Source: an uncultured Gammaproteobacteria bacterium
GTDB taxonomy: Bacteria; Patescibacteriota; Patescibacteriia; Magasanikbacterales; UBA922
Reading direction: 5' to 3'
NCBI GenBank assembly: GCA_964457885.1
Contig: CAYWFD010000001.1
Span: forward strand, 1 to 38,513
Length of the DNA stretch: 38,513 nt
In this document: positions 14,001 through 31,293 of the stretch, piece after piece
Position numbering within the stretch: the stretch's first letter is position 1
How the letters are laid out: each line of letters begins with the position of its first letter
The notes under the pieces: generated by a model
The model's database searches: none
Told to the model about the DNA's origin: nothing
Seen by the model: the letters and a program-made list of their open reading frames with translations, nothing else
Translations under genes and position numbers: made by a program

Positions 14001-14238
14001 GAAGACCTCTTTTGACCTTGGAGGAATAGTTGATGTGGAAAAAGAGCGTGCGCGAATTGAAAAGGAAATTGCTGTGGTCGAACCCTATGTGATTTCCCAG
14101 AAGAAGAAATTGGAAAACAAATCTTTTGTCGACAATGCGCCGAGTGCAGTAGTGGAAGCTGAACGGAAGAAACTTGCAGATGCTGAACAGAAGTTGAACT
14201 CATTGCACGAACAACGTAAGAATTTAATCTCTAATTAA
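11014..14238 (+). CDS. valS: valine--tRNA ligase carrying an internal histidine-phosphatase domain insertion
   Basis: PPPNVTGTLHMGHA (HIGH-type), TTRPETKLGDTAIAVNP and GTGALGVTPAHSQIDFD (editing domain), DTWFSSGSW.FSTLGWP, TGYDILFFWVARM, RKMSKSLGN, and a C-terminal coiled coil (KERARIEKEI...). It is 1074 aa because of the about 184-aa insert. Confidence 0.9.
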   Translation: MSHKELPKAYEPSQYEDALYRRAQDSGFFSPDKQPEWVKNDETRESFSMVLPPPNVTGTLHMGHAVMLAIQDVLARYHRMKGDRTLWVPGTDHAAVATESKVEKMLIEKGMKKPKAEFGREKFLKEVEKFAQDSHDTIVNQAKKMGASLDWSREAYTLDHARNTAVNTLFTMMYDDGLIYRGYRVINWSVKGQSTCSDDELVYVERPGKLYYFKYGPECPITIATTRPETKLGDTAIAVNPEGKWKKYIGEYFKIENFGQTGHTLTLKVIADENVDDNFGTGALGVTPAHSQIDFDMYQRQKAKGVNIDLIQVIGEDGNMTASAGSDYVGLSVTEARKKVVAWLEKSGLLEKSEDTMQNVGTSDRFGDVVEPLPKTQWFIDVNKEFTLKNSKLKEFKSGDKATLKKLMQSVVKTGEIEIIPDRFNKTYFHWIDNLRDWNISRQIWYGHQIPVWYRGEEIYCGTTAPEGEGWKRDPDTLDTWFSSGSWTFSTLGWPRTHVGFIRHGEAENNVAKVVNDDISGSNLTEKGRKQVNDLAKEVKNEGFELIVSSPVLRTRQTAEILAEKLGLPVEFDERIREVGFGKLDHHTEAEIEKEREIKGWMVKTPFGMESYVSLRKRTHAFMQDLLAKYPGKKILLVSHGDTLGVLKQFGTDLYTNEIGSTQEKASCDLRTFANNGRQSDDLSLFHPTSVLETGYDILFFWVARMILMSTYALGEVPFKTVYLHGLVRDEQGRKMSKSLGNIIDPLEMIGKYGTDATRLSLLIGGTPGNDMRLSEEKIAGFRNFTNKLWNISRFMLLNIENPARDPKEPKAETAADEWILYKLNTVIEQVVKYLESYQFSLAGETLRDFTWGELADWYLEIAKVEGNKSDILNYILNTILKLWHPYMPFVTEQIWQEVYGGESLMVEKYPVPGKRKKEGKEIVFIDTVLIPTIVKIRTIRAEYNIDPGKIINIEIQSDSSYKKLFDEYGLVIERLGRSKRYVLKAESGSFVIGGSKTSFDLGGIVDVEKERARIEKEIAVVEPYVISQKKKLENKSFVDNAPSAVVEAERKKLADAEQKLNSLHEQRKNLISN
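12499..13050 (+). other. histidine phosphatase superfamily (PGAM/CobC-type, branch 1) domain embedded in valS
   Basis: VGFIRHGEAENN, LTEKGRKQ, IVSSPVLRTRQTAEIL, EVGFGKLD and LLVSHGDTLG. It is in frame with ValRS on both sides and has no stop codons. Confidence 0.75.
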
Positions 14239-15859: not shown

Positions 15860-17577
15860 TCAGATACGTACACGAACATATTGCGGGGTTGCTTGAAACA
15901 ATCGGAATACCGGAACATCATATTACACTCACGATTCCGCCTAAAAAAGAAATGGGAGACGCAGCATTCCCTGTTTTTCAGTATGCTAAAGAACAGGAAG
16001 TACATCCAGTCGAAGCAGCAAAACAATTGGCAGAAAAATTTAATCAAGAGACTGAAGATACTCTCGTCGAGCGTGCTGAAGCATTCGGGCCATATGTCAA
16101 TTTTTTCTTGAATGATCGCGAGCTTGCACAAGTAGTACTGAATCTTGCGACTCGAAATTCTGCTGCGCCTGCAGATTCAAAAGGTTCGATCATGATCGAA
16201 TTTATTTGCGCAAATACACACAAAGCATTCCATATCGGCCATCTTCGAAATGCGATTCTCGGAGAATCATTGGTGCGATTGCACGAACACGCAGGCTATC
16301 GAGTAATACGTACTACGTATGGAGGAGATGTGGGTATGCATATTGCAAAATGCCTGTGGGGAATTGAAAAACTTCATGAAAAATATGAAGAGGTAAAGCA
16401 GAATACATTCATCGAAGAGCGCATGAAATTTATCGGTGAGGCATATGCATATGGCGCAACACAGTTTGAGAAAGATGAACACGCACAAGAGGAGATCAAA
16501 CAGTACAATGAAATGATTTATAAAAAGGATCCAGCCATCAAAGAGGTCTACGAAACCACTCGAAGTTGGAGTCTTGAAAATCTTGAGAGAATTTATCAAT
16601 TGCTCGGCATTCAATTCGATCGATATTACTTTGAATCAGAAGTTTTTGAACGTGCAATTGGAATTGTTACTGAAGGTCTTGCACAAGGAATCTTTGAAAA
16701 AAGCGATGGCGCAGTGATATTTAAGGGAAGCGAACACGGCCTGCATGATCGAGTATTCCTCAATAGCAAAGGGCTTCCGACATATGAAGCAAAAGATCTG
16801 GCTCTCGCAGAGAAAGAATTCGGGGAGTATCATCCGGATGCGATTTATCATGTGATCGGGCCCGAACAGTCTGAGTATCTCAAAGTTCTGTTTAAAGCCC
16901 TTGAATATACCTTGGCTGAAAGCGCGGGAAAAGAGTTCCATATTCCCTATGGTTGGGTCGATCTCAAGGGAATGAAAATGAGTTCTCGGACTGGGGATGT
17001 GGTGACGGCTGAAGATCTGATCAAAGAAGTGAAGATACACATCAGGGAGCACATGGAATCAAGCGAAGTCAAAGCAAAACTTTCGTCTGAAGAGAAAGAG
17101 AGTGTGATTGAAAACGTATCAATGGGGGCGGTGAAATACGCATTCCTCAAGACCGGACGAGTGAACAATATCACCTTCGATATGCAGGAGTCGGTCTCAA
17201 CCTCGGGAGACAGTGGACCGTATTTGCTCTACATCGTTGCGCGCTTCAAAAGTATTCTCGCGAAAAGTACTTCTGACGCGAAGAGCGGGAACATATCCAT
17301 TCCCGAAGTTCTCGAGCCAGCAGAACGTGCATTGATCATTAAGCTTGGAGAGTTTGAAAGTGCAGTCGACGAGGCGATTGAAGCGAAAGATCCGTCAAAA
17401 ATCGCGCAATATCAATTTGAACTTTCGCAAAGCGCGAATCAATTCTATCACGAGTGCCCAGTCCTTGGCGCAGAAGAAGTAATCCGGGGATTCCGTCTTG
17501 CTCTAATTAAAAAAGTGGTCCATACTATGGAAGTTGGTTTTGATCTTCTCGGAATTACTACGGTTGAACACATGTAA
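15856..17577 (+). CDS. argS: arginine--tRNA ligase
   Basis: ANTHKAFHIGHLRNAILGESL, MSSRTGDVVTAEDL and the DALR-type anticodon-binding GPYLLYIVARFKSIL. The start is set at ATG 15856, giving an ATGA overlap with the tyrS stop (15857..15859). Confidence 0.85.
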   Translation: MIRYVHEHIAGLLETIGIPEHHITLTIPPKKEMGDAAFPVFQYAKEQEVHPVEAAKQLAEKFNQETEDTLVERAEAFGPYVNFFLNDRELAQVVLNLATRNSAAPADSKGSIMIEFICANTHKAFHIGHLRNAILGESLVRLHEHAGYRVIRTTYGGDVGMHIAKCLWGIEKLHEKYEEVKQNTFIEERMKFIGEAYAYGATQFEKDEHAQEEIKQYNEMIYKKDPAIKEVYETTRSWSLENLERIYQLLGIQFDRYYFESEVFERAIGIVTEGLAQGIFEKSDGAVIFKGSEHGLHDRVFLNSKGLPTYEAKDLALAEKEFGEYHPDAIYHVIGPEQSEYLKVLFKALEYTLAESAGKEFHIPYGWVDLKGMKMSSRTGDVVTAEDLIKEVKIHIREHMESSEVKAKLSSEEKESVIENVSMGAVKYAFLKTGRVNNITFDMQESVSTSGDSGPYLLYIVARFKSILAKSTSDAKSGNISIPEVLEPAERALIIKLGEFESAVDEAIEAKDPSKIAQYQFELSQSANQFYHECPVLGAEEVIRGFRLALIKKVVHTMEVGFDLLGITTVEHM

Positions 17578-17583
17578 CTGCAT

Positions 17584-18072
17584 ATGTTGTCTTTTTTAAA
17601 AGAAATCATTACGGATGTCCGTGAAGCTCGTATCCCAGGCTGGCTTTTTTGGGTGATTATCGTATGTGCGGGAATTGGTTTTCTTGATGCAAGTTTTTTG
17701 TCGATCGAACATGTCGTCACCTCATTCAATGGGGGCGGAGTGAATTGTATTGTGGGTTCTCCTGGATCATGTAATATTGTGCTGGAAAGCATTTATGCGA
17801 AAGTGCAGGGTATCCCGCTGTCGTATCTTGGCCTCCTCTATTATACGGCGATTATTATCCTCATTACCCGCCTGCACGCGGCCCGAAAAATACATCTATG
17901 GTTATTGCTCCGGGGAATTATCACCTGCGGTTTCCTCGCGAGTCTCTACTTTGTCTATCTGCAGCTGGTAGTATTGCGGACGATCTGTCCCTACTGCATG
18001 CTCTCAGCGGCGATGTCTGCGATCATGTTTGCAGGTGTAGTGTCCCATCACGTTAAAAAACAGCTTAAATAA
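17584..18072 (+). CDS. vitamin K epoxide reductase (VKOR) family membrane protein
   Basis: There are about four hydrophobic helices, a loop cysteine pair (GGVNCIVGSPGSCN), YAKVQGIPLSYLG, and CPYC in the last helix. Confidence 0.75.
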   Translation: MLSFLKEIITDVREARIPGWLFWVIIVCAGIGFLDASFLSIEHVVTSFNGGGVNCIVGSPGSCNIVLESIYAKVQGIPLSYLGLLYYTAIIILITRLHAARKIHLWLLLRGIITCGFLASLYFVYLQLVVLRTICPYCMLSAAMSAIMFAGVVSHHVKKQLK

Positions 18073-18082
18073 GCTGTTTTTT
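18055..18082 (+). terminator. intrinsic terminator overlapping the VKOR stop codon
   Basis: AAAAAACAGCTT-aaat-AAGCTGTTTTTT; the TAA stop (18070..18072) straddles the loop and the 3' stem arm of the hairpin. Confidence 0.6.
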
Positions 18083-18105
18083 GTAAACAAAAATAAAACA
18101 AAATT

Positions 18106-19293
18106 ATGAGTTATTTTGAGAATTTTTTTACGCAACCACCTGAAAAAATTATTGAATGGCGCGATACCGAAACAGAAGCAGTTGGTTGGTTAGTATTTAA
18201 TTCATTGCGCGGGGGTGCGGCAGGTGGGGGAACAAGAATGAAACCAGGGTGCACTCTGGAAGAGGTAATCAATCTGGCAAAAGTCATGGAAATTAAATTC
18301 GCAATTTCAGGTCCATTGATTGGTGGTGCAAAATCAGGAATAAATTACCTCCCAAAAGATGAACAAGAAAAACATGAGGTTTTAACTAGATGGTTTACTT
18401 TTATTGGGTCATATCTTAAAAAGATGTATGGCACTGGCGGTGACTATAATGTAGATCAGACAAGGGATGTCGTACCAATTCTAGAGAAGTTCGGTATTCG
18501 ACATCCACAAGAAGGCATTGTTCGTGGACATTTAAAGGGCATGAAAAAAACAATTCAGGATAAGATAATAGGACAATTGCATACGGGCGTAAAACTTTCA
18601 GTTGATAATTTTTTTGCAGATAAACAGATAACAATTGCAGATATCGCGACAGGATTTGGGGTAGTTGAGGCTCTACAGGAATATTATGAAGTCTATAGCG
18701 AAACAATTGAAGACAAAAAGATTATTGTAGAAGGATTTGGAAATGTAGGCGGTGCGTCTGCATATTTTGCAGAAAAAGCAGGAGCAGTAGTCGTAGGGAT
18801 TATAGAGAAGGATTGGAAGATGTATAACGACCGTGGTATCGTCGTCGAAAAATTGTATAAACATATTCGAAAAAGGGGGGTGAAAAAGCAGTCGCTTCTC
18901 AAACCTTCACAAAAAAATATAATCGCTGATGTCTATATACCGGCTGCAGCTTCGGGGACTATCAATGGTGAGCGACTGGGTGTTTTGAAAGATATGGGGG
19001 TAAAAATCATTGTATGCGGAGCTAATAATCCGTTTGATTCGATTGAAACGCTAAAGAAAGCGGATGCGATGTTCGTGGTAATTCCTGATTTTGTGGCAAA
19101 TGCAGGTATGGCGCGTACATTTGCATATCTTATGCAGCCAGACGCGATAGTTACGAGCAATGCGATTTTGGAGGATATTGCACAATGTATACGAGGGGCC
19201 GTAAGAGAGATATACTCTCAAGCCCCATTGGGGAACTATCTCTACGCAACTGCTGAAAAGGTAGTAATGGATAGATTAAATACACGTTCATAA
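18106..19293 (+). CDS. Glu/Leu/Phe/Val dehydrogenase family protein (divergent)
   Basis: RGGAAGGGTRMKPG, IGGAKSGINY (catalytic Lys motif), GTGGDYNVD, the Rossmann motif VEGFGNVGGASAYF, and CGANNP. Confidence 0.75.
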   Translation: MSYFENFFTQPPEKIIEWRDTETEAVGWLVFNSLRGGAAGGGTRMKPGCTLEEVINLAKVMEIKFAISGPLIGGAKSGINYLPKDEQEKHEVLTRWFTFIGSYLKKMYGTGGDYNVDQTRDVVPILEKFGIRHPQEGIVRGHLKGMKKTIQDKIIGQLHTGVKLSVDNFFADKQITIADIATGFGVVEALQEYYEVYSETIEDKKIIVEGFGNVGGASAYFAEKAGAVVVGIIEKDWKMYNDRGIVVEKLYKHIRKRGVKKQSLLKPSQKNIIADVYIPAAASGTINGERLGVLKDMGVKIIVCGANNPFDSIETLKKADAMFVVIPDFVANAGMARTFAYLMQPDAIVTSNAILEDIAQCIRGAVREIYSQAPLGNYLYATAEKVVMDRLNTRS

Positions 19294-19296
19294 TAT

Positions 19297-20319
19297 ATGA
19301 AAAAAGAGTATCTGAATGTTTGGAATATCGTAGCAGAAGATTTTCCATTTAGTAAAAATGTAGCTGAACAGATAAAATTTGTATTGAAATACGCAGTCCT
19401 TGCACCCTCAACGCACAATATCCAGCCGTGGCTTTTTCGGGTTGAAAGTAATACGTGTAGTTTTTTATTTGATCCACAGGCGGTATTGCCTCATGGAGAC
19501 AGTGAACGGAGGTACGCAACGATAAGTATTGGTGCTGCGCTTGAAAATTTCATTATTGCGGCGACAGCTTTTGGTATGAAACCCTCGGTACAGTACATGG
19601 TAAATGAAGACGTCTACGCACGAGTGTCTGTCGAAGCAGGAAAAATTCTTGATGATAAATATATCGGAATACTTAAATCAATTACAGAACGGGTCAACGT
19701 ACGAGGAGTATTTCAGTCAGGGAAAATATCTGATGAGATTGTATCTTTATTACGATCGGAAGCAGAGGCAAAAGAATGCACTGCACATATATATACAGAT
19801 CAAGAAAAAATATCACATATCGCAGAACTCACCGCTTTAGGGCTTCAGCGAGCGCATAAACAAGATACATTTCGTAAGGAAATGGCGACGCATATTGTTT
19901 CAAATATTTCAGAGAGCCCAATCGGAATTCCTGGATACACAATGAATTTGCCGTTGATATTTTCTTTAATTATCCCAAAATTGATTTACTACAAGGATCT
20001 TTCCCCGATATTATCGAAACTAAATTACAAAAGTATCGCCTCAGCACCAATAGTGTGTGTAATAACTGCAAAGCAATGGAATAGACGCTCATGGCTTGAG
20101 GTGGGTCAAACCGCAGAGAGATTGATACTCCATGCTCAAAGCAGGGGTATGCATTCATCGGTATATGTGGCAGCGACTGAATTTGATGAGACTGCGCTTG
20201 AATTGCAGAAGATAATACATACCGAGGAACGTCCGGCATTTATATTTTGTATGGGGTATATGAAAAAAAGATACAAACATGCTCAAAGGGTCCCAAGCGA
20301 GCGGAAAATCATTTCATGA
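19297..20319 (+). CDS. Acg-type (double nitroreductase fold) FMN-binding oxidoreductase family protein
   Basis: LKYAVLAPSTHNIQPWLFRV, D..R......GAALENF, ERVNVRGVF, and about 340 aa with the same layout I remember for M. tuberculosis Acg/Rv2032-like proteins. Confidence 0.7.
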   Translation: MKKEYLNVWNIVAEDFPFSKNVAEQIKFVLKYAVLAPSTHNIQPWLFRVESNTCSFLFDPQAVLPHGDSERRYATISIGAALENFIIAATAFGMKPSVQYMVNEDVYARVSVEAGKILDDKYIGILKSITERVNVRGVFQSGKISDEIVSLLRSEAEAKECTAHIYTDQEKISHIAELTALGLQRAHKQDTFRKEMATHIVSNISESPIGIPGYTMNLPLIFSLIIPKLIYYKDLSPILSKLNYKSIASAPIVCVITAKQWNRRSWLEVGQTAERLILHAQSRGMHSSVYVAATEFDETALELQKIIHTEERPAFIFCMGYMKKRYKHAQRVPSERKIIS

Positions 20320-20332
20320 TAATAAACATCAT

Positions 20333-21448
20333 ATGGAAAAACTAAGACAAAAGTTAACCCAATATAATACTACCGATAATTCGATATATAAACCGGATAT
20401 TTTTGATATCACAAAAAAAGATGACCAACAGAAATTAGAACGTCTATTTGAAGAGCAAAAGATTGCATATCTTATAAACGATCTAGAAAATCAAGAAAAA
20501 GAACTGCAGGTGATCAAAAATCCAGAAACTATGTTGCAGGCGACCGCATTGCATGAAACATTCAGAGATTCGGCAGATGCGAATATTGAGGGTGGAAGAT
20601 GGGTTTATTATCCCTGGAGAAAGACCCTGGTACATTGTCTTGGACCAGAACAATATCAGACAGTAAGACTTGCAAGAAATAAAGACCTGATTACTGAAAA
20701 AGAACAGATAGCAATAAAGAACGCCAGAATATCTATATTTGGGTTAAATGTAGGATATTCAGGAGCCATTGCATGTGCGCTGGGAGGGGTGGGATCACAT
20801 TTCGATTTGGTTGATTTGGATGTACTTTCTCTTACCAACCTTAATCGCTTTACTGCGGGCATATGTGATATTGGAATAAATAAAGCGGTTATAGCCGCGC
20901 GACATATGTATGAATTGGATCCGTATTTGGACATCACAGTTCATGAAAAAGGATTGAATATGGAGGGTGCTGAAGATTTTATTCGCGAAAAAAAACCGGA
21001 CCTAGTAATCGAAGAAATGGATGCGTTAAAATTGAAAATATTGGTCCGTAAAGTTGCAAAAGAACAAAAGATTCCAGTGGTAATGGTGACTGGAAATGGA
21101 AGTGACATTATTTTGGATGTTGAGCGATACGATTCTGAAACGGTGGAATTACTGAATGGCCTGCTGGATGAAAAAGTGAGGGAAAAAATAGAGAATAAAG
21201 AAGGACGATTTTCATTTGAAGAACACATCGAGTTAGCTCGGGATTTTATGGGCAGAGAATGGCTAACCAAACGGTTGTGGGATTCGTTTACAAAAGTTGG
21301 GAAAGAATTGGCAGGTATACCACAACTTGGTGAGACCACACTCCTTCGAGGCGCAACACTCGGTCGTGTGGTACGAAATATATTAACGGGAGAGCCTGTC
21401 CGATCGGGAAGATACGTTATTACATTAGGAGATTTCACTAATCAGTAG
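20333..21448 (+). CDS. ThiF/MoeB/E1-like adenylyltransferase family protein with an N-terminal extension of about 125 aa
   Basis: ARISIFGLNVGYSGAIACALGG (variant nucleotide loop), DLDVLSLTNLNRF (Arg finger region), GINKA and LVIEEMDALKLK. The start is set at ATG 20333, 13 nt after the upstream stop. Confidence 0.75.
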   Translation: MEKLRQKLTQYNTTDNSIYKPDIFDITKKDDQQKLERLFEEQKIAYLINDLENQEKELQVIKNPETMLQATALHETFRDSADANIEGGRWVYYPWRKTLVHCLGPEQYQTVRLARNKDLITEKEQIAIKNARISIFGLNVGYSGAIACALGGVGSHFDLVDLDVLSLTNLNRFTAGICDIGINKAVIAARHMYELDPYLDITVHEKGLNMEGAEDFIREKKPDLVIEEMDALKLKILVRKVAKEQKIPVVMVTGNGSDIILDVERYDSETVELLNGLLDEKVREKIENKEGRFSFEEHIELARDFMGREWLTKRLWDSFTKVGKELAGIPQLGETTLLRGATLGRVVRNILTGEPVRSGRYVITLGDFTNQ

Positions 21449-21451
21449 TCT

Positions 21452-22879
21452 ATGTTACCAGCAGGTTTCAAACAAGCATTAAAAGCATTTCAGCGGGCAG
21501 CGGAGACAGTTCCTGCATATCAAAAATTTCTTAAGTCAGAAGGGATTAATCCTGCAATGATTAAAACCCCTGAGGATTTTGAGAAAATTCCCTATGTAGA
21601 CAAAAAAAATTATCTGAGAAAATACGAATATCAGGAACTGTTTCCATTTGGGCACATACCTGAGATGGTCTCAGCAAGCTCAGGGTCATCAGGTAAGCCG
21701 TTTTATTGGCCACGCAGTGAGGCGCTCCATACAGAAGGTGCCGAAATTCATGCACGTATTTTTACAGATATATTTGGTCTGGAAAAAAAGAAAACACTAG
21801 TTATCGTTTCATTCTCAATGGGTATGTGGATAGCAGGAACATATACCTTGCTTTCATTGCTTGAAATGCAGAGAAAGAATGGTTTAAATATTTCAATTGC
21901 AACTCCTGGAATTGAGGTAGAAGATACTATATCAATACTGCGTGGATTTGCCAAAAATTTTGATGCAATCGTATTTATCGGATACCCTCCATTTATCATG
22001 GACCTTATTAAAAAAGCTCAGGAAGAAAAGATAAATTTGAATACGTGGGATATTTCTTTTCTGTTTGCAGGAGAACAGTTTTCAGAAGTATGGCGCGAGT
22101 ATGTATATGATATCGCAGGAGTTACGTCAGATCTTTCTCGATCGGTAAGTATCTACGGGACTGCAGATGCCGGCATTGTGGGGCATGAAACACCTGCCAC
22201 AGTTGCGTTTCGTAAAAGTTTTTTACGCAAGGATTTTTTGCATACTGACCAGCTTGACCAGCTTGGAGAAGCACAGACATTGGTGCAGTATTACCCAAAG
22301 TATAAGTATCTCGAAACTCATAAAAGTGAGCTGTTGATAACGTCGGCATACACAGGTATCCCCCTGATAAGGTATAATATCCATGATCAGTGTGTATTGG
22401 TGCCCGAAAACGAGTTTGAAAAATTGTCTGAAAAAGCGAGTGTATACACGAATTTTCCAGAATTGCGTCATGCGAAATATCAACTACCTGTGGTTGCGTT
22501 ATATGGACGAAAAGATATTGCGGTCATGTTTTACGCACTTATCATCTATCCGCAAAATATAAAAGCAGGGTTAGAGGAAAAAAGTATTGCACCGTATATA
22601 ACAGGAAAATTTATCGCTGAAGTGGTGTTAGGTAAAAAAGGTAAGCAGAATTTGCGGATTCATGTGGAATTGGCTGAAAGTAAAATGAGGAACGGAAAAA
22701 TAGAGAAAAAAATACAATCCTTGGTAATAAAAGCGCTTTGTCAAAAAAACGCTGAATATCGAAAATTGGTCGCTTCAATAGGAAAACAGGCATATCCAAA
22801 GATGGTGCTACATGAATTCGGCTCAGAAATTTTTAAGATTAAGAAATCAAAACATAATTGGGTGAAGAAAGCCCTCTAG
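21452..22879 (+). CDS. phenylacetate-CoA ligase / coenzyme F390 synthetase-like adenylate-forming enzyme
   Basis: VPAYQKFLKSEGINPAMIKTPEDFEKIPYVDKKNYL is a PaaK/CapK-type N-terminus. SASSGSSGKPFYWP corresponds to the (S/T)SGTTGKP adenylation loop, and YGTADAG is also present. Confidence 0.65.
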   Translation: MLPAGFKQALKAFQRAAETVPAYQKFLKSEGINPAMIKTPEDFEKIPYVDKKNYLRKYEYQELFPFGHIPEMVSASSGSSGKPFYWPRSEALHTEGAEIHARIFTDIFGLEKKKTLVIVSFSMGMWIAGTYTLLSLLEMQRKNGLNISIATPGIEVEDTISILRGFAKNFDAIVFIGYPPFIMDLIKKAQEEKINLNTWDISFLFAGEQFSEVWREYVYDIAGVTSDLSRSVSIYGTADAGIVGHETPATVAFRKSFLRKDFLHTDQLDQLGEAQTLVQYYPKYKYLETHKSELLITSAYTGIPLIRYNIHDQCVLVPENEFEKLSEKASVYTNFPELRHAKYQLPVVALYGRKDIAVMFYALIIYPQNIKAGLEEKSIAPYITGKFIAEVVLGKKGKQNLRIHVELAESKMRNGKIEKKIQSLVIKALCQKNAEYRKLVASIGKQAYPKMVLHEFGSEIFKIKKSKHNWVKKAL

Positions 22880-22882
22880 TGT

Positions 22883-24511
22883 ATGATTCCATTGGAAGTA
22901 TTGATACAAAGATTGGAGTTACCCTCATTGGTATTTGTGGGACTTACGATCGTAGGATTAGGAGGTATTGTATTCTATCGTGCGCGTAGAAGTGCGAGTG
23001 GACTTTTATTTGTAGTACTTTCGTTAAGTTTTGCGGCATGGGCAGTCGTAAATTATTTTTCTCTCAACCGGGTACCAACCGATTCGGTAGTTTTCTGGGC
23101 ACGCGCCGTACTATTCAGTGCAGCACCTCAGGCAATGATTTTTGCATTACTGATGCATACGCTTCCTTCAGAAAAAATGCTCATGCCAAGATGGAAAATT
23201 GTTGTGTATGTGTTATTGTTGATAACTCAAATGAGTTTTGCGCTTTCACCATACGTATTTAGTGGTATTGAATGGGAAGGGCGCAAAGCGGTACCGACGG
23301 TAAGCTGGGGAGTGGGGATTTACATGGCAATCATGATATATTTTTTTGGACAAGGAATTTACTGGTTGGTAAAAAAATTTATCTATGCGAAAAAGAATGA
23401 AAAAAGGAATTTGTTGATCATTTTATACGGATTTGGCAGTTTGATTTTTTTCTTACTCACCTTTTTATTATTTGCTGTTGTATTCTTTAATAACACAACG
23501 TTTTTGCCAATAAGCCCGATTTTTGTACTACCGTTTATTATATCTACGGGGTATACGCTGGTACGGCAGGAATTTTTGCATATTCGATTAGTGACCACTG
23601 AATTTGTAGCAAGTTTTCTTACTATTATACTGTTGACCGATGCCTTCCTTTCTGAAGGTTTATTTCAGGTCATATGGAAATCGGCATTCGGTATTGGTGT
23701 AGGTATTTTAGGTTTCCTGTTAATTCGTTCTGTATATAGGGAAATAGCACAAAGAAAAAAACTTGACTCACTGACCCATTCCCTTGAAAAAGCAAATATC
23801 CGCCTCAAAGAGCTTGACCAACAAAAAACTGAATTCTTATCAATCGCATCGCACCAACTCCGGACTCCTTTGTCGATTATCAAGGGATATATCGAATTGA
23901 TCTATGACGGCGCATACGGTAAGCCGACAAAAAAATTGCAAACCGTACTCCATAATATGGATGAGAGTAATGAGCGCTTGGTAAAACTGGTAGATGAATT
24001 TTTGGATATTACTAGAATCGAACAGGGGAGAACCAAATTTTCATTTGAATCTTCAGATATAAATGAATTAGTGGCGGGGGTGGTAGAAGAGCTGAAAGAC
24101 CGGGCAAAAGCGGCGGGAATCACCATACATTTTGCACATTCAAATGAGATCGACAACGTATATATGGATCCGGAAAAAATCAGGCATGTGGTCTTCAATT
24201 ATGTTGATAATGCGATCAAATACAGTGCCAATGGCAAAGAAATCGATGTAAATATCGAATACGAAAACAATGGGTGTACGGTAAGGGTCAAAGACCACGG
24301 GCTTGGGTTTGATACGCCAGACCATGCTAGCTTTTTCCAAAAATTCTATCGAGGTGAAAATGTGAAAGGTACCAATGTCAATGGAACCGGACTCGGTATC
24401 TACGTGTGCCGTAAATTTATCGAAGCACACAAAGGGCATGTTTGGGCAAAGAGTGACGGATTGGGTAAGGGGAGTGAGTTCGGTTTTTGGATCCCTGACA
24501 CGAAGCAATAA
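22883..24511 (+). CDS. sensor histidine kinase with a polytopic (about 7 TM) N-terminal domain
   Basis: The N-terminal about 270 aa are hydrophobic. H-box LSIASHQLRTPLSII, N-box NYVDNAIKYS, G1 DHGLGF, G2 GTGLGIYV. No receiver-domain gene lies in the window. Confidence 0.85.
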   Translation: MIPLEVLIQRLELPSLVFVGLTIVGLGGIVFYRARRSASGLLFVVLSLSFAAWAVVNYFSLNRVPTDSVVFWARAVLFSAAPQAMIFALLMHTLPSEKMLMPRWKIVVYVLLLITQMSFALSPYVFSGIEWEGRKAVPTVSWGVGIYMAIMIYFFGQGIYWLVKKFIYAKKNEKRNLLIILYGFGSLIFFLLTFLLFAVVFFNNTTFLPISPIFVLPFIISTGYTLVRQEFLHIRLVTTEFVASFLTIILLTDAFLSEGLFQVIWKSAFGIGVGILGFLLIRSVYREIAQRKKLDSLTHSLEKANIRLKELDQQKTEFLSIASHQLRTPLSIIKGYIELIYDGAYGKPTKKLQTVLHNMDESNERLVKLVDEFLDITRIEQGRTKFSFESSDINELVAGVVEELKDRAKAAGITIHFAHSNEIDNVYMDPEKIRHVVFNYVDNAIKYSANGKEIDVNIEYENNGCTVRVKDHGLGFDTPDHASFFQKFYRGENVKGTNVNGTGLGIYVCRKFIEAHKGHVWAKSDGLGKGSEFGFWIPDTKQ

Positions 24512-24583: not shown

Positions 24584-25378
24584 ATGTTTAAGAATTCTTC
24601 TGAACCTCAAAGACCACAAGTTCATGAGCAAGTGAACACTCCGCGTACTCACCATGACGAGGTGGAGACCGTCGTTGGTCCCTCTGTCGTAGTTGAAGGA
24701 GATTTTTCTTCAGAAGGTAATATCTTGGTCAAAGGAACTGTATCGGGAAATGTACAGACCGGTAAATTATTGACCGTCGAGGAAGGTGCAAAAATCCTTG
24801 CAAATATAAAGGCCGGTGACGCATTGGTCTCAGGTGAGATCAAAGGAAATGTGCGTGTCGAGGATAAATTGCAGGTGACCGAGAGTGGACGAATCTTGGG
24901 AGATATTTATTGCCGTGTACTTGAAGTCGAGTCAGGAGCAATCATCCATGGAAAAGTGACGATGACCGATATTGAAATCGAAGATATCCGTCCAGACCGA
25001 AAACGTACGACCGTCCGAACCAAATCAAAAGTCGAAATAATGCCTGAACAAACTGAAGAGGCATTGAGAAGCGGTGGAATTAACCCGCGGGTGAATCAAG
25101 GCGAGTATGTATGTCTATCTCTACGACAACTTTTTGAAGCACAAGCGATACGAAACGATTCTGAAAGCAATAGAAACGCGTCTGACCGATTATGGAATCG
25201 CAGGGAAAATCGTTCGTCTCCAGCACTACTCTTCGGCCGATCTGCTCCTGCAGGACGAAGTCCGAAAAGGTGCAAAAACCGTGGTGATCGTGGGAAACGA
25301 CACCACGTTTGGTCATATCTTGTCATATGTCGCGTCGCACGACGTGACGTTTGCGTTTATTCCGATCGGACCCAATAA
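24584..25378 (+). CDS. bactofilin family protein (3' end uncertain)
   Basis: The core VVGPSVVVEGDFSSEGNILVKGTVSGNVQTGKLLTVEEGAKILANIKAGDALVSGEIKGNVRVEDKLQVTESGRILGDIYCRVLEVESGAIIHGKV (about 24662..24964) is a typical bactofilin beta-helix repeat. The frame stays open to 25378, overlapping the next gene. Confidence 0.75.
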   Translation: MFKNSSEPQRPQVHEQVNTPRTHHDEVETVVGPSVVVEGDFSSEGNILVKGTVSGNVQTGKLLTVEEGAKILANIKAGDALVSGEIKGNVRVEDKLQVTESGRILGDIYCRVLEVESGAIIHGKVTMTDIEIEDIRPDRKRTTVRTKSKVEIMPEQTEEALRSGGINPRVNQGEYVCLSLRQLFEAQAIRNDSESNRNASDRLWNRRENRSSPALLFGRSAPAGRSPKRCKNRGDRGKRHHVWSYLVICRVARRDVCVYSDRTQ

Positions 25379-25868
25379 CACGATTGCGGAAGTACTTGGT
25401 ATTCCAGTCGGTATCGAAGCATGCGACATATTGGCACGTCGACGAAGACTTAGATTGGACGTCGGCTGGGTGAATAATCGGTACTTTGTGTCACAGCTCC
25501 ATATCCCGCCGAGCACCATCGCAATCCAGTATGACGAACGGTTTAATGTTTCAAGTACGAGTGGAAAAATGGAGTTGGTGGTGTGCAATCTCCAGCCTTT
25601 CTTCTGGACAGGGAAAGGCCGCCGCTACGTCGCGCATCCGCAAGATAATAAATTGGAAGCGTTTTTGCGCCCTGTTGTTCCTGGAAGCTGGTTCAAAAAA
25701 GAAGATTTTGAAGAACCAAGTATTTTTCCCTTCGAAGAAATGGTGGTCACCAGTAAGAAACCATTCGTAGTCGAGGCAGACGGCAAGACCACCAAAGAAG
25801 TGAAAGTTACGATCAGGCTTGCAAAAAGTCGGATCGATATGGTGGTCGGAAAAGAGCGTAAATTCTGA
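25107..25868 (+). CDS. diacylglycerol kinase catalytic-domain (YegS/BmrU-like) family protein with variant motifs
   Basis: MYVYLYDNFL...TVVIVGNDTTFGHIL...FAFIPIGPNNTIAEVLGIP aligns to the DAGK_cat pattern (GGDGT ... PlGTgNdfar) with GNDTT and GPNNT in place of the canonical motifs. Confidence 0.6.
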   Translation: MYVYLYDNFLKHKRYETILKAIETRLTDYGIAGKIVRLQHYSSADLLLQDEVRKGAKTVVIVGNDTTFGHILSYVASHDVTFAFIPIGPNNTIAEVLGIPVGIEACDILARRRRLRLDVGWVNNRYFVSQLHIPPSTIAIQYDERFNVSSTSGKMELVVCNLQPFFWTGKGRRYVAHPQDNKLEAFLRPVVPGSWFKKEDFEEPSIFPFEEMVVTSKKPFVVEADGKTTKEVKVTIRLAKSRIDMVVGKERKF

Positions 25869-25940: not shown

Positions 25941-26352
25941 ACACGATTCTGGATAATCGCCCGTACGGGAGGAAAGTCCGAACTCCGTATTGATATTTTT
26001 TATCAAGAACAAAGGTAATGGATAACGTCCATCCGTGCAGTCGCGAGGCTGTATGCGGGACAGTGCCACAGAGACAATACTAATCGCACCGCGATTATCG
26101 CAGTGCGGTGAAAGGTGAAAAGTGTATCAATGTATTGATAGGTTCAGCATATGCACTGTATCAATGCTATGATACTTCCTCTGTCGCAAGACAGAACGAT
26201 GGCAAACCCTACCTGGAGAAAGAGCAGCGTTCTCTGGCTACGTCAGAGTTCGAAAAGTTAGCTCGTTTGATCCCGATAGTAATATCGGGGCTAGAGAAAT
26301 GATTATCGCCCGGCCTTGCTGGGAACAAAATTCGGCTTATACGAATCGTGTG
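25941..26352 (+). ncRNA. rnpB: RNase P RNA, bacterial type A
   Basis: GGGAGGAAAGTCCGAAC (P4 5' strand), CAGTGCCACAGAGACAA and GGTGAAAGGTGAAA are present. GGGAACAAAATTCGGCTTATAC is the P4 3' strand. 5' CACGATTC pairs with 3' GAATCGTG to form P1. Confidence 0.85.
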
Positions 26353-26358
26353 AAACAC

Positions 26359-26672: not shown

Positions 26673-26837
26673 GAGACACCTTCCTTGTGAAGAGGATACT
26701 CGTGCATGGGCAGAATAGGCAAAAAAAGGCAAATAGTCAAGATAAAAGCGATAATTTTGCCTTATTTTAAGCAAAATGGAATAAAAAGTGATATCGGGTG
26801 TAGTACCAGTAAGAATAAGAAATATAGTAATGATCGT

Positions 26838-28796
26838 ATGGTTAAAAAAATATATCAGACAATACTCAAACACAAATTTATTTCAGCGGTGATTGCACTT
26901 CTCGTGATAGGAGGAGGTACGGTCGGGGTACGTGCATTGAGGTCCGGCAGTACCGAAGAGACACGATATGTATTAAGCCAGGCTGAAAAAGGTACTCTCT
27001 CGACGACTATTTCCGGAAGCGGGCAAGTCTCGGCGTCAAACCAGGTGGATCTCAAAGCAAAGGCATCGGGCGAGGTCGTGACATTGGTAATCAAAAATGG
27101 ACAAAAAGTGAAAACCGGGGATGTGTTGCTGACCCTCAATTCTGGTGACGCCTATGAAAATGTACGGGATGCACAAGATAATTTGGAAAGCGCCCGTCTG
27201 TCACTCGCAAAACTGACCAAATCAGCGGACGAACGATCAATGCTCCAGGCAGAAAACGCACTCGCGACGGCAAAAAACAATCTTGAAAAATTGAAATTGT
27301 CCCAGGAAATTGAAAAAGCAAAATCAGAGGAGTCGCAGAAAAAAGCCGAGGATGATCTTGAGACCGCATATGAAGATGCGTATGATGCATTATCAGAAAC
27401 ATTTATCGATATCCCGGATGTAATGTCGGGATTGTACAATGTACTCCTGAGTTATGAAATTATGAATTCAGAGCCTGGGTATGGAGTCTATACCAATGAT
27501 GGGGCATTCACCATGCATGTACGGTCTTCTGATGAGGATGATTATATACAAATTAGCCGGTTGGTAGAGACTGCCGTAGGTAAGTATCATGATGCCGATG
27601 AGGTATTTGAATCAGCGTCAGAAGAATTTTCAAGCCTGTCGAGAGGTGCTGATACAGCGGTGGTGGATGCGGTATTGAATGAGTCAGTGAGTGCGCTGAT
27701 AAAAATTTCTGATACCGTAAAAAGCACGCTAGCATTGCTCAGTTCTTGGGTTGAATACCGGGAAACGCACGAGCTCAAAGTGTTTGATATCGTTAAAGAG
27801 TATAAAACCGATACTGAGAATTTTGTCACGACCGTAAATAGTAATCTTTCATCGGTGCGTGGAATTCAGGAAAAGATACGGACAAGCAAACAGACCATTG
27901 TTGACGAGGAGCGAAGTCTCCGGGAGATGGAATTGAATAATCCGTTTGAATTCGAATCCGCTGAAAAGGAGATCAAAGACAAAGAATTGGCTCTCGCCGA
28001 ATTGGACGAAGGGGCAGATGAGCTTGAGTTGCGTCAGGCACAGATCACCGTGCGCCAGAGACAGACCGCCTTGACTAAAGCACAAAAAGAACTTGCAAAT
28101 TATGCGGTCAACGCACCGTTTGATGGAGTTATCGCTTCGGTTGATGCCAAAAAAGGAGAAACGATCTCATCGGGCGGCGCAATCGCCACCTTGATCACCG
28201 ACCAGCGAATTGCGGAAATTTCTCTCAATGAAGTTGATGTGGCACAGGTGGAAGTGGGGCAGAAAGTGAATCTGACTTTTGACGCAGTCGACGATTTGCA
28301 GATCACGGGAAGCGTCGCTGAAGTCAGTTCAATCGGTACGGCAAATCAGGGAGTGGTGAGCTACGACGTGGTGATTATTTTTGACACCCAAGACGAGCGT
28401 ATCAAGCCGGGCATGAGTGTGTCTGCGACAATTATTACCGAGATCAAACAGGGAGTGATTACGGTTCCGATCGGCGCGGTAAAGACGCAGGGAGATATAT
28501 CGTATGTGGAAGTGGTAGACGATGAGACTGCTATTGTCACGAACGGGGCAAATGGCGTGGCCCTTGGGACAGCGCCACGCCAACAAGTCGTTGAAGTAGG
28601 TATATCAAACGATACCATAATCGAAATTGTATCAGGATTGAATGAAGGTGACTATGTGGTCTCGCGTACGATCACCGCGACTGCAGGTACCGGCACCACA
28701 CAGACACAATCAGCGCCAAGTTTGTTTGGCAACACAGGTGCGGGGCAAACGCGTCAAGGAGTTGGCGGAGGCGGCACGATGCAATTCCCGCGATAA
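26838..28796 (+). CDS. HlyD/MacA-family periplasmic adaptor subunit with a very long coiled-coil hairpin
   Basis: The N-terminal TM segment is FISAVIALLVIGGGTV. The barrel-sandwich motifs are GEVVTLVIKNGQKVKTGDVLLTL and VNAPFDGVIASVDAKKGETI, with about 330 aa of heptad-like, Glu/Lys/Ala-rich sequence between them. The start is set at ATG 26838. Confidence 0.8.
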   Translation: MVKKIYQTILKHKFISAVIALLVIGGGTVGVRALRSGSTEETRYVLSQAEKGTLSTTISGSGQVSASNQVDLKAKASGEVVTLVIKNGQKVKTGDVLLTLNSGDAYENVRDAQDNLESARLSLAKLTKSADERSMLQAENALATAKNNLEKLKLSQEIEKAKSEESQKKAEDDLETAYEDAYDALSETFIDIPDVMSGLYNVLLSYEIMNSEPGYGVYTNDGAFTMHVRSSDEDDYIQISRLVETAVGKYHDADEVFESASEEFSSLSRGADTAVVDAVLNESVSALIKISDTVKSTLALLSSWVEYRETHELKVFDIVKEYKTDTENFVTTVNSNLSSVRGIQEKIRTSKQTIVDEERSLREMELNNPFEFESAEKEIKDKELALAELDEGADELELRQAQITVRQRQTALTKAQKELANYAVNAPFDGVIASVDAKKGETISSGGAIATLITDQRIAEISLNEVDVAQVEVGQKVNLTFDAVDDLQITGSVAEVSSIGTANQGVVSYDVVIIFDTQDERIKPGMSVSATIITEIKQGVITVPIGAVKTQGDISYVEVVDDETAIVTNGANGVALGTAPRQQVVEVGISNDTIIEIVSGLNEGDYVVSRTITATAGTGTTQTQSAPSLFGNTGAGQTRQGVGGGGTMQFPR

Positions 28797-28804
28797 TTAT
28801 TCCT

Positions 28805-29503
28805 ATGATTGAAGTTACGAATATTGAAAAAACATATCATACCGGGAAAGACGTTACGTTTCGTGCGCTGAAAGGAGTGAGCTTTACCATCCAGGATGGA
28901 GAGTTCGTAGCGATCATGGGTCCGTCGGGTTCCGGAAAATCCACGCTCATGCATATCTTGGGCGCGCTTGATACGCCAAGCGCGGGCACCTATCTCTTGG
29001 ATGGTAAAAATGTGGCGGATCTGACTGATGACGAACTTGCAGATATTCGGAAAGAAAAAATCGGATTTGTATTTCAGGCATTTAATCTATTGCCCCGGGC
29101 GACCGTACTCCGAAATGCAATGCTGCCGCTCATTTATACGGATATGGATGAGCGGGAACGCGTGAAGCGGGCGGAGGATTCGCTCCGTGCCGCAGGGCTT
29201 GATGACCAATATTTTACGCATCGATCAAACGAGTTGTCAGGAGGGCAGATCCAGCGCGTGGCGATCGCGCGAGCGCTGGTGAATAATCCGAGTCTCGTGC
29301 TTGCGGACGAGCCGACCGGAAACCTTGATTCAAAGACAGGAGAGATCGTATTGGGAACGTTTCAGAAATTGAATCGAGACCTGGGACGGACGATTGTGCT
29401 TATTACCCATGAGCAAGACGTGGCAGAACATGCAGATCGGATTATTTTTATCAAAGACGGGGCATTGATAAGTGACAAGCGTACGCACACTCACCCAAAA
29501 TAA
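28805..29503 (+). CDS. ABC transporter ATP-binding protein (MacB/LolD/FtsE type)
   Basis: Walker A GPSGSGKST, Q-loop, signature LSGGQIQRVAIARAL, Walker B LVLADEPTGNLD and H-loop ITHE. Confidence 0.9.
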   Translation: MIEVTNIEKTYHTGKDVTFRALKGVSFTIQDGEFVAIMGPSGSGKSTLMHILGALDTPSAGTYLLDGKNVADLTDDELADIRKEKIGFVFQAFNLLPRATVLRNAMLPLIYTDMDERERVKRAEDSLRAAGLDDQYFTHRSNELSGGQIQRVAIARALVNNPSLVLADEPTGNLDSKTGEIVLGTFQKLNRDLGRTIVLITHEQDVAEHADRIIFIKDGALISDKRTHTHPK

Positions 29504-29506
29504 GAT

Positions 29507-30730: not shown

Positions 30731-30782
30731 TTCGTAATATCGACAATCTTTTTATTTATCTTTTATTATAATAGTAATCTCT

Positions 30783-31253
30783 ATGAATAAAACAATTGGA
30801 GTTCTCAGTGTGTGCATACTCGTTGCAGGTATCGGAGGATTTTTTGGAGGAATGCAATATCAGAAAAGTAAAAGCCCGATGCAATTCGGGAACATGATGA
30901 ATAGTGGGGCTACGGGTATGACGCAGCAGGGAAGAATGGGACAGGGTGGAACCATGGGGCGGTTTGCGGGAGGCGCTGGATTTACCAGTGGCGAAATACT
31001 TTCTAAAGATGAGAGTAGTATGACCGTAAAATTGATGGACGGCGGCTCAAAAATAGTATTGTTTTCCGCTTCAACCACGGTCATGAAAGCGACTGAAGTG
31101 TCGAAGGATGAGTTGACCGTGGGCGAGCAGGTAACGGTCACTGGAGCTGCAAATACAGATGGAACGGTAAGCGCGCAATCAATCCAGGTGCGCACGGGGA
31201 ATATGCAGGTACCAGAAGGAATGATGCCGCCTGACAATGCTGAAGCAGGTTAA
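30783..31253 (+). CDS. membrane-anchored/secreted protein with a Gly/Met/Gln-rich linker and a DUF5666-like beta domain
   Basis: The N-terminal TM segment is IGVLSVCILVAGIGGFFGG. The low-complexity stretch is MQFGNMMNSGATGMTQQGRMGQGGTMGRFAGGAG. SGEILSKDESSMTVKL...LTVGEQVTVTG..NTDGTVSAQSIQV follows. The family assignment is from memory only. Confidence 0.4.
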   Translation: MNKTIGVLSVCILVAGIGGFFGGMQYQKSKSPMQFGNMMNSGATGMTQQGRMGQGGTMGRFAGGAGFTSGEILSKDESSMTVKLMDGGSKIVLFSASTTVMKATEVSKDELTVGEQVTVTGAANTDGTVSAQSIQVRTGNMQVPEGMMPPDNAEAG

Positions 31254-31261
31254 GCTAATAT

Positions 31262-31285: not shown

Positions 31286-31293
31286 ATATTGCG

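Follow-up and report, generated by a model that had tools for sequence, protein, structure and literature searches.

On balance, a gene cluster in a 38,513-nucleotide (nt) contig of the Patescibacteriota lineage Magasanikbacterales UBA922 (CAYWFD010000001.1, assembly GCA_964457885.1; this whole stretch is referred to as the window) can be read as a composite mechanism in which an amino-acid-derived N-acyl oxazolone pathway is coupled to a sensor histidine kinase. The cluster encodes an ELFV-family dehydrogenase, a nitroreductase-superfamily flavoenzyme (NTR), a ThiF-like protein, a PaaK-fold ligase and the kinase, which has a seven-transmembrane (7TM) sensor. According to the protein families to which they belong, the NTR and the ThiF-like protein appear to be a split form of the oxazolone synthetases OxzB, TyzB/TyzC and TrzS, and cyclase and desaturase chemistry is likely for these two proteins. 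This cyclase/oxidase pair is the known part of the system, while the ligase in place of an acyltransferase, the swappable deaminating enzyme and the 7TM kinase are new.

Oxazolone synthetases were found in 2020-2021 and extended to Mycobacterium tuberculosis in 2023-2025 (bioRxiv 10.1101/2020.06.11.147165, PMC10404671, PMC12856293). TrzS, which is Rv1355c, converts N-acyl tryptophan to N-acyl tryptazolone with ATP and O2 (PMC12856293), and the same conversion is performed on N-acyl tyrosine or phenylalanine by OxzB of Pseudoalteromonas (bioRxiv 10.1101/2020.06.11.147165) and by the split TyzB/TyzC of M. tuberculosis (PMC10404671). All characterised oxazolone clusters carry an N-acyl amino acid synthase, OxzA, TyzA or TrzA, that uses acyl-coenzyme A (acyl-CoA) (PMC10404671, PMC12856293). 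In TrzS of M. smegmatis, the residues D217, R540 and Q651 have been mutated. Clusters for N-acyl dehydrotyrosine in Planctomycetota are related (PMC12479983). In the literature found, nothing links oxazolones or this gene set to Patescibacteria, and two oxazolone papers in the Journal of Biological Chemistry are silent on Patescibacteria, ligases and kinases.

In the proposed pathway, an amino acid would first be deaminated to a carboxylic acid, by the ELFV dehydrogenase to a 2-oxo acid in the window and by an aminotransferase or a 4-methylideneimidazole-5-one (MIO) enzyme elsewhere. The PaaK-fold ligase would adenylate an acid and couple it to an amino acid through the latter's amino group, generating an N-acyl amino acid and replacing OxzA/TyzA/TrzA. 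The ThiF-like enzyme would then adenylate the carboxylate of this product, and ring closure by the amide oxygen would give the 5(4H)-oxazolone, as expected from homology to TrzS, TyzB and OxzB. Desaturation between C-alpha and C-beta by the Acg-type flavoenzyme, by homology to TyzC and to the flavin-dependent oxidase (FDO) of TrzS, would give an alkylidene or arylidene oxazolone. Finally, the 7TM kinase, presumably co-transcribed at the 3' end, would couple the module to signalling, either by sensing the product or a lipophilic cue or by controlling the pathway.

The predicted ThiF-like cyclase and its flavoenzyme partner

Regarding the cyclization step, the ThiF-like protein has a match to the Pfam ThiF domain and aligns with positions 4-336 of the 722 positions of the NCBIfam model NF005901 (Rv1355c family) with an E-value of 4.6e-85 and 286 bits. 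The second-best ThiF-type NCBIfam model reached 53 bits, and the ThiF and MoeB models gave 32-51 bits against cut-offs of 152-377 bits. Residues 20-371 are 37% identical (E 5e-62) to an Rv1355c-family fusion protein encoded on a Rhodococcus plasmid (locus L056, NZ_CP046101.1). A library of representatives at 50% identity contains 856 clusters with similarity to the ThiF-like protein at E <= 1e-30. For 147 of the top representatives the length was read, and 69 of them have the size of a fusion (at least 650 aa); the three of these 69 that were scanned are full Rv1355c-family ThiF-FDO fusions, with 485-664 bits against a cut-off of 476 bits.

The initial annotation had pointed out a variant nucleotide loop (GLNVGYSG) and an uncharacterised N-terminal extension in this protein. 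Both are present, but both are family-wide and common to TrzS-type systems: the loop GLNVG(Y/N) is invariant in 26 CPR (Candidate Phyla Radiation) homologues and reads GLSVGS in the Rhodococcus protein, and the extension of about 110-125 aa aligns with TrzS-type proteins. The split layout resembles TyzB/TyzC. Also invariant in the 26 homologues are D161/D163, N169/N171/R172, K184 and E227-E228-x-D230; the DxD, NxNR, Lys and Asp of EExD are presumably the ATP-binding residues expected in ThiF/MoeB-type folds. D230 aligns with D200 of the Rhodococcus homologue and is taken here as the equivalent of the Asp that binds ATP/Mg in ThiF and MoeB. The 26 homologues have no Cys that is invariant or nearly so, nor a CxxC motif, and neighbour clustering of the ThiF-like loci revealed no conserved small ThiS/MoaD/ubiquitin (Ub)-like family, that is, none of the features of a Ub-like E1 or sulfur-carrier system. 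Foldseek superposed the AlphaFold model (predicted local distance difference test score, pLDDT, 90) on AclA, the top structural neighbour, and on ThiF, MoeB, PaaA and TcdA, in each case limited to a C-terminal core of about 260 residues, and MccB was likewise among the neighbours; the N-terminal extension gave no match in the PDB with Foldseek, either to a RiPP recognition element (RRE-type) or to any other structure. TcdA and AclA (PDB 9egb, Tenacibaculum discolor), the closest solved ThiF-like structures, share this core and are devoid of the N-terminal extension of about 110 aa. The protein had been proposed to be a generic carboxylate activator, the second of the cluster, acting on a peptide or a cofactor. 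Membership of the Rv1355c/TrzS family points instead to a cyclodehydratase with an N-acyl amino acid as substrate, and this is the best reading of the protein.

Two alternative assignments of the ThiF-like protein have to be weighed. The first is cofactor or tRNA chemistry, in which the cluster would belong to an F390/deazaflavin pathway or the protein would be TcdA. TcdA is its best sequence match among solved structures (E 7e-8), some homologues are labelled tRNA A37 threonylcarbamoyladenosine dehydratase by the Joint Genome Institute, and the ligase has a weak match to F390 synthetase (30 bits). However, this last score compares with a cut-off of 459 bits, no F420 genes lie nearby, and the TcdA model gives 38 bits against 304 bits, compared with the 286 bits reached by the Rv1355c model on half of its length. 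Furthermore, ring closure by TcdA after adenylation likewise yields an oxazolone (PMC12596934), in agreement with a cyclodehydratase and without pointing to a tRNA substrate. This alternative is extremely improbable. The second is modification of the C-terminus of a peptide or protein, as in RiPPs (peptides that are made on the ribosome and modified after translation) or microcins, with thiazole/oxazole-modified microcin (TOMM), McbC and PaaA-like enzymes as the models. Here the peptide end, in formal terms an N-acyl amino acid, would be adenylated by the ThiF-like protein, and oxidation of the heterocycle thus formed would fall to the flavoenzyme. Most characterised ThiF-like enzymes do act on proteins, peptides or tRNA (PMC12596934), and PaaA and MccB are among the structural neighbours mentioned above. 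On the other hand, the junctions of 3-13 nt and the leader of 33 nt are too small for a precursor open reading frame (ORF), the Rv1355c/TrzS family acts on small molecules (PMC12856293), and the N-terminal extension is the one common to TrzS. As already described for the block itself, no YcaO protein, Ub-like carrier or precursor ORF is found in it, and none appears among the conserved neighbours in the clustering, although no dedicated YcaO hidden Markov model (HMM) scan of all loci was made. A peptide-maturation system is therefore improbable, if less so than the cofactor or tRNA reading, and neither product class suggested at first, an F420/F390-type cofactor or a matured peptide, finds support. 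An anti-phage defence system of the E1/E2 type was also considered and rejected, as PADLOC returned generic E1-domain similarity only (best E 1.6e-9) and nothing for the other proteins.

The flavoenzyme has a Pfam Nitroreductase match and belongs to the tandem-fold Acg family (NCBIfam NF047509, E 8.8e-53). It also matches positions 374-646 of NF005901, the FDO half of Rv1355c (E 8.7e-22), and it is 24% identical (E 1e-10) to the FDO domain of the Rhodococcus fusion. It is predicted to be a C-alpha/C-beta desaturase equivalent to the FDO half of TrzS. The view that the gene combination is undescribed does not hold for this part of it, because the NTR/ThiF pair, with its NF005901 matches, corresponds to OxzB, TyzB/TyzC and TrzS in split form. 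As in OxzAB (Pseudoalteromonas rubra), TyzACB and TrzAS (Rv1356c/Rv1355c, M. tuberculosis), a ThiF-like cyclase of the same family adjoins, or is fused to, an oxidase of the nitroreductase superfamily. In contrast to these systems, the CPR module has no OxzA/TyzA/TrzA-type synthase; it adds a PaaK-fold ligase, frequently a deaminating enzyme, and a 7TM kinase, and its hosts are Patescibacteria. At the Rhodococcus locus, a GGDEF-domain gene (L056:3013-3948, NZ_CP046101.1) lies just 5' of the TrzA-like/Rv1355c-family pair.

Conservation and layout of the gene set

Seeding with the ThiF-like alignment yielded 55 genome loci, all in metagenome-assembled genomes of Patescibacteria and representing more than 12 named lineages (a few loci bear automatic labels): Parcubacteria/Paceibacterota and Brenner-, Nomura-, Kerfeld-, Vogel-, Terry-, Yanofsky-, Lloyd-, Wildermuth-, Kaiser-, Magasanik- and Doudnabacteria. 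Comparison with related loci puts the source of the window in Patescibacteria/CPR as well; of the named genomes, one from Magasanikbacteria is nearest. Gene families at these loci were counted by tblastn and by all-against-all clustering of ORFs. A nitroreductase is encoded at 49 of 54 loci, directly adjacent to the ThiF-like gene in nearly all of them, the PaaK-like ligase at 46, the orthologous 7TM kinase at 45 and an ELFV-family gene at 22. When only the 38 complete loci, which have at least 4.5 kb on each side of the ThiF-like gene, are considered, the nitroreductase is found at 37, the kinase at 36, the ligase at 35 and all three at 32, and a receiver-only response regulator at 9. The genes are arranged in no fewer than five orders, among them ligase-NTR-ThiF-kinase, NTR-ThiF-ligase-kinase and NTR-ThiF-ELFV-ligase-kinase, and the surrounding genes vary. 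The kinase gene comes last in the core gene order wherever it is present, and at 37 of 45 loci it lies directly 3' of a core gene of the same strand, the median gap being 6 nt. Two ligase-seeded look-ups returned ligase-ThiF-NTR-HisKA_7TM kinase together with a receiver. A metagenome pattern scan seeded with the kinase sensor, for which a 7-sequence sub-alignment was used, the 31-sequence alignment being too divergent, gave 21 loci; 12 of these extend at least 4.5 kb upstream, and in 11 of them the NTR, ThiF and ligase genes lie immediately 5' of the kinase gene, and one or two receiver-only genes often follow downstream.

The co-occurrence of the gene set is far beyond chance, and the conserved unit consists of NTR, ThiF, ligase and kinase. 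CPR genomes are dense and nearly all genes of the window are on one strand, which would favour fortuitous adjacency in a compact genome; but the set recurs at 32 of 38 complete loci in varying order and surroundings, the ligase and kinase seedings agree with each other, and two fusions connect its members to enzymes of the pathway. Fortuitous adjacency retains next to no probability and is ruled out by the conservation across loci. The proposal of a small pathway, as opposed to chance packing, is thereby borne out, and the composition of the unit needs revision: the ELFV gene, which had been counted as one of four members, is optional and replaceable (14 of 38 complete loci), and the kinase gene, which had been placed outside the block, is a core member. 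At two loci (L002, L005), a Peptidase_M19 gene (membrane dipeptidase, E 1.5e-28; family f41, e.g., L005:9141-9800, minus strand) is located between the cassette and the kinase gene. The Peptidase_M19 family includes dehydropeptidases, and such an enzyme could act on N-acyl dehydro-amino acids arising from oxazolone hydrolysis.

In the window, ORF coordinates and folding agree with the earlier description of four co-directional, closely spaced genes behind a terminator-like hairpin (Table 1), and the four domain assignments also stand: those of the ELFV dehydrogenase, the Acg-type nitroreductase and the ThiF-like protein by HMM, and that of the PaaK-like ligase by NCBIfam and by AlphaFold/Foldseek, with no Pfam match. 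From the ELFV gene to the kinase gene, the gaps are 3, 13, 3 and 3 nt. The gap of 13 nt presupposes the ATG at 20333 as the ThiF start, which is favoured over the alternative start by the length of the homologues (about 350-375 aa). The hairpin consists of a perfect 13-bp stem between an A-run and a U-run and folds with -15.3 kcal/mol (z = -4.9; 0 of 200 shuffles equally stable); we infer that it functions as a terminator and forms the 5' boundary of the transcription unit. In the folding scan, no hairpin or terminator was found at the ligase/kinase junction, and none that is convincing 3' of the kinase gene. Because no hairpin separates the ligase and kinase genes, the block is terminator-bounded on its 5' side only, so that its description as terminator-delimited applies to that side, and the transcription unit most likely continues through the kinase gene. 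The block had also been called AT-rich. There is a mild dip, with 38.4-40.0% GC in the four genes against 44.3% in the window and 45-47% in the glycolytic genes, but the line of 28% GC from which the claim was made is unrepresentative, and the kinase gene is equally low (39.8%).

Table 1. Positions of the hairpin and the five genes of the cluster in the window
Feature	Position	Strand	Remarks
Terminator-like hairpin	18054-18083	+	overlaps the stop codon of the VKOR gene; from sequence and folding
ELFV dehydrogenase gene	18106-19293	+	395 aa
Nitroreductase (NTR) gene	19297-20319	+	
ThiF-like gene	20333-21448	+	371 aa; alternative ATG 20279
PaaK-fold ligase (PaaKl) gene	21452-22879	+	475 aa
Sensor histidine kinase gene	22883-24511	+	

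The PaaK-fold ligase and the deaminating enzymes

The window ligase has no Pfam match, even at E <= 10, and its NCBIfam matches are weak: E 2e-9 and 36.4 bits for PaaK (TIGR02155, cut-off 646.3), and E 2e-7 for the F390 synthetase match mentioned above. Its AlphaFold model, based on 39 homologues (pLDDT 87), has its best Foldseek matches in PaaK1, PaaK2 and BT_0428 (E about 3e-19), with a probability of 1.00 to PaaK1/PaaK2. Across the 39 homologues, SSGSxGxP (S76-S77-G78-S79-x-G81-x-P83), G236/A238/D239, D312, RxD (R353/D355) and K467 are invariant; in the conserved YGTADAG segment, Y235 is nearly invariant and T237 is variable. By comparison with the ANL enzymes (acyl-CoA synthetases, nonribosomal peptide synthetase adenylation domains and luciferases), these motifs are taken to correspond to the P-loop, the YGxxE/D-type motif, the Asp before the hinge, GRxD and the catalytic Lys. 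The two-domain PaaK fold and the intact adenylation motifs, seen in the model and the alignment, are those of the ANL/PaaK superfamily. The score lies under the cut-off of the PaaK equivalog, and no paa catabolic genes were found at any examined locus. The original designation as a PaaK/F390-like ligase is therefore right as to the fold and the weak NCBIfam matches, but it does not extend to either named enzyme, given that Pfam is silent, that the scores are far under both cut-offs and that there is no paa or F420 context.

Members of the PaaK family with a different reaction are known. NatL2, AjiA1 and ClxA, which come from benzoxazole pathways, convert an adenylated aryl acid directly into an ester or amide, without CoA (PMC7204872, PMC12519233, PMC9400959). 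The model of the window ligase matches these CoA-independent condensing ligases at E 1e-13 to 1e-16 and shares with them the PaaK fold and the adenylation motifs; the identity is 14-16%, and the window ligase is about 45 aa longer and belongs to a CPR-specific clade. A natural fusion of a PaaK-like ligase to a ThiF cyclase (P0338; L084:1114-3705, 863 aa) was found, whose ligase part shares 32% identity with that of the window over 474 aa (E 5e-87), in a locus with the order ELFV / ligase::ThiF / alpha-beta hydrolase / 7TM kinase / receiver. The neighbour clustering of the ThiF-seeded loci revealed no conserved acyltransferase family. Likewise, tblastn with the TrzA-like protein of L056 and the GNAT of the L057 cluster against 866 kb of CPR loci and the window gave only noise (E <= 10), a search that a very remote or non-homologous acyltransferase would escape. 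The ligase is the sole conserved candidate for the acyltransferase step. Because of its strict co-occurrence with the other genes, its fusion to ThiF and the PaaK-family precedents for CoA-independent condensation, the ligase may, with somewhat better than even chances, be the supplier of the N-acyl amino acid.

A catabolic or salvage role would explain the ligase differently: it would make an aryl- or acyl-CoA, the ELFV enzyme would degrade an amino acid, the kinase would sense the substrate, and the ThiF and NTR proteins would be unrelated. The best fold matches, which are phenylacetate-CoA ligases and BT_0428, and the annotations that call the family phenylacetate-CoA ligase agree with such a role. 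It is nevertheless very improbable, as the PaaK score is 36 against 646 bits, no paa ring-oxidation or beta-oxidation genes occur at any locus, the ligase is fused to ThiF in P0338, and the trio co-varies as a unit.

The enzyme that would prepare the acid for the ligase varies among the loci. In the alignment to 3aoe, the window ELFV protein (Pfam PF00208, ELFV_dehydrog, 1.6e-23; PF02812, ELFV_dehydrog_N, 9e-10) retains two Lys residues, the catalytic one (GGAKSG) and that for the alpha-carboxylate (MEIKFA), and it has GAAGGG where 3aoe has GPAKGG. In glutamate dehydrogenases (GDHs), the Lys of GPAKGG binds the gamma-carboxylate of the substrate. Because this Lys is replaced by Gly, the window enzyme is probably not glutamate-specific, and its scores against all GDH equivalog models are far under the cut-offs. 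In place of the ELFV gene, a class I/II aminotransferase gene (PF00155, E 2.5e-39) is found at 6 of the 38 complete loci. A further protein, P0250 (L085:153-2927, 924 aa), is a fusion of the ThiF cyclase with an MIO aromatic ammonia-lyase/aminomutase, in a locus with the order ThiF::MIO / ligase / NTR / 7TM kinase; its MIO domain reaches 547 bits against a cut-off of 501 for the Tyr 2,3-aminomutase model and bears the GSVGASGDLNPL motif (ASG, residue 536). ELFV dehydrogenase, aminotransferase and MIO enzyme are three non-homologous enzymes, and their common denominator is the alpha-amino group of an amino acid. As all three act on this group, a step from an amino acid to a carboxylic acid is proposed, in which the ELFV enzyme is an optional, swappable accessory of the module. 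The earlier suggestion that the pathway is amino-acid derived is supported. CPR bacteria, or Patescibacteria, are generally held to be largely without fatty-acid synthesis, so that a fatty acyl-CoA is unlikely as the acyl donor. It is conceivable, although the balance is slightly against it, that the deaminated amino acid itself (a 2-oxo acid or an aryl-acrylate) is the acyl donor activated by the ligase.

The exchangeable cassette, the sensor kinase and biological implications

The closest relative genome (L001, CAZNAO010000008.1) keeps synteny with the window from TyrRS to RNase P. Over 17300-22900 of the window, the nucleotide identity to L001 is 85-95% in the flanks and drops to 65-70% over exactly the four biosynthetic genes, with 77% for the VKOR gene and 83-89% for the kinase gene. 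Protein identity is 63-73% for the enzymes, compared with 89-100% for TyrRS, ArgRS, the kinase, bactofilin and the diacylglycerol (DAG)-kinase-like protein. Synonymous divergence (dS) is 0.7-0.97 in the flanks and saturated in the cassette, in which nonsynonymous divergence (dN) is four- to six-fold higher. Relative to two further relatives, L061 and L062, divergence of the cassette does not exceed that of ArgRS or the kinase, so that only the pair of the window and L001 shows the anomaly. The best explanation is that recombination in one of these two lineages replaced the four-gene block with a distant allele. The kinase gene was not exchanged along with the enzymes, and the four biosynthetic genes behave as an exchangeable cassette at a fixed chromosomal site between close relatives. 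This divergence island, together with dS, supersedes the argument that the AT-rich block is foreign DNA, which was rejected as too weak on composition alone; the accessory-like character assigned to the block is retained on the new ground. dN/dS was computable only for NTR (0.077) and the ligase (0.050), dS being saturated for ELFV and ThiF. Judged from sequence comparison, the pathway appears to be kept under purifying selection.

The window kinase contains HisKA (1e-16) and HATPase_c (1e-24) domains. Its HisKA_7TM match (PF16927) is sub-threshold (20.6 against 28.6 bits) and is clear in the orthologues of L058, L059, L084 and L085; the hydropathy of the N-terminus of the window kinase indicates seven or more segments. 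The sensor domain is orthologous across the loci and has no periplasmic domain, and W53, N57, S60, W72, R74, P123, G141, G183, P217 and Y224 are conserved intramembrane residues in 31 orthologues. A protein homology search with the sensor domain alone gave no matches, and no ligand of the HisKA_7TM domain is reported in the literature found. The response regulators near the kinase orthologues, often one or two genes, consist of a receiver domain only, and TrmB-type regulators occur at some loci. The genomic linkage of pathway and kinase is established by the loci, and a functional linkage is very probable. That the kinase senses the product of the pathway is a more tentative proposal and less likely than not. 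Autoinducer synthases for small lipophilic molecules paired with a polytopic membrane receptor-kinase without a periplasmic domain are known from CqsA/CqsS and LuxM/LuxN. The CPR module shows a similar gene pairing, but its proteins are not known to be homologous to these synthases or receptors and its regulators are receiver-only. The authors of the oxazolone studies liken acyl-oxazolones to acyl-homoserine lactones and describe them as labile, like signals, and trzAS adjoins cyclic di-GMP genes in M. tuberculosis (PMC12856293). A self-contained signalling circuit, in which an oxazolone or N-acyl dehydro-amino acid made from two scavenged amino acids is sensed by the 7TM kinase with its receiver-only regulators, is possible, if doubtful.

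The serious alternative to such a circuit concerns the biology and not the chemistry. The same oxazolone or N-acyl dehydro-amino acid could be an effector (for example membrane-active, antimicrobial or stress-protective), and the kinase could sense an outside signal, for instance host contact, envelope stress or oxidative stress, and do no more than regulate or accompany the pathway. The authors who studied oxazolones call their physiological role unresolved, and stress and antimicrobial roles have been proposed (PMC12856293; de Rond et al.). An effector also agrees with the TrmB-type regulators at some loci and with the finding that, from the window to L001, the kinase has not diverged in step with the enzymes. 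On the other side, the receiver-only regulators have no DNA-binding output, so that transcriptional control of the operon is not evident, and the kinase gene is within the same predicted unit as its last core gene, an arrangement that is typical of synthase-receptor pairs and is no proof of one. The effector alternative is about as tentative as the signalling circuit.

Several points weigh against the N-acyl oxazolone pathway coupled to the kinase. The chemistry of the CPR module as a whole is predicted from sequence, and identity to the characterised enzymes is modest, amounting to 33-39% in the ThiF part and to about 24% in the flavoenzyme. The window nitroreductase scores 180 bits on the Acg/Rv3131 model against 77 bits on the Rv1355c FDO half, and we know of no established substrate for Acg-type proteins. 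O2 is used by the characterised desaturases, and anaerobes are common among CPR bacteria. It is also possible that the ligase supplies acyl-CoA to an unlinked acyltransferase. As 18 of the 38 complete loci have neither an ELFV nor an aminotransferase gene nearby, the first step must be non-obligatory or encoded elsewhere. As for signalling, there is no response regulator near the kinase gene within the window, and the kinase of the window shares 94% identity with that of L001, against 63-73% for the enzymes. There is thus no sign of signal-receptor co-diversification, which was rejected for this pair.

The remaining genes of the window are housekeeping genes: YebC, RuvC, GAPDH, PGK, enolase, two iPGM, ValRS, TyrRS, ArgRS, bactofilin, a DAG-kinase-like protein, RNase P RNA and a MacAB-like exporter. 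The two iPGM genes (6416-7993 and 7998-9575, plus strand; 525 aa each, iPGM_N and Metalloenzyme domains) are full-length and stand in tandem directly 3' of the enolase gene. ValRS (11014-14238, plus strand, 1074 aa) has a His_Phos_1 domain of the histidine-phosphatase superfamily (E 2.7e-36) inserted at residues 501-647, amid its catalytic domain. The bactofilin ORF (24584-25378, 264 aa) overlaps the ORF at 25107-25868 by 272 nt; the L001 bactofilin stops at 161 aa (TGA) and the codon at 25065-25070 of the window is AGA, either through loss of the stop codon or through a sequencing error. RNase P RNA is of class A and complete (25941-26355, plus strand, 152.8 bits), and no tRNA genes were found in the window. 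About 5 kb at 26778-31807, with genes for an HlyD-like adaptor, a MacB-type ABC exporter, a DUF5666 protein and a DoxX-like protein, are absent from L001, the sequence of which runs directly into a metallo-beta-lactamase (MBL)-fold gene equivalent to 31808-32849 of the window. The region 33500-36500 has about 33-36% GC around two ORFs without a Pfam match (32898-33473, plus strand; 33684-34820, minus strand), and 36500-38500 has about 54% GC over an M23-peptidase gene (36669-38498, minus strand).

The module provides a concrete candidate synthase-sensor pair in the oxazolone field, in which signalling has been a matter of speculation by the authors. Such a pathway would be maintained by minimal-genome organisms with almost no recognised secondary metabolism. 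In addition, the ligases form a new clade of the PaaK fold and may offer a route to oxazolone and N-acyl amino acid scaffolds that is independent of fatty acyl-CoA. If the signalling circuit is true, it would be a quorum-sensing-like or host-interaction signal in Patescibacteria, and the 7TM kinase would be the first receptor for the oxazolone class.

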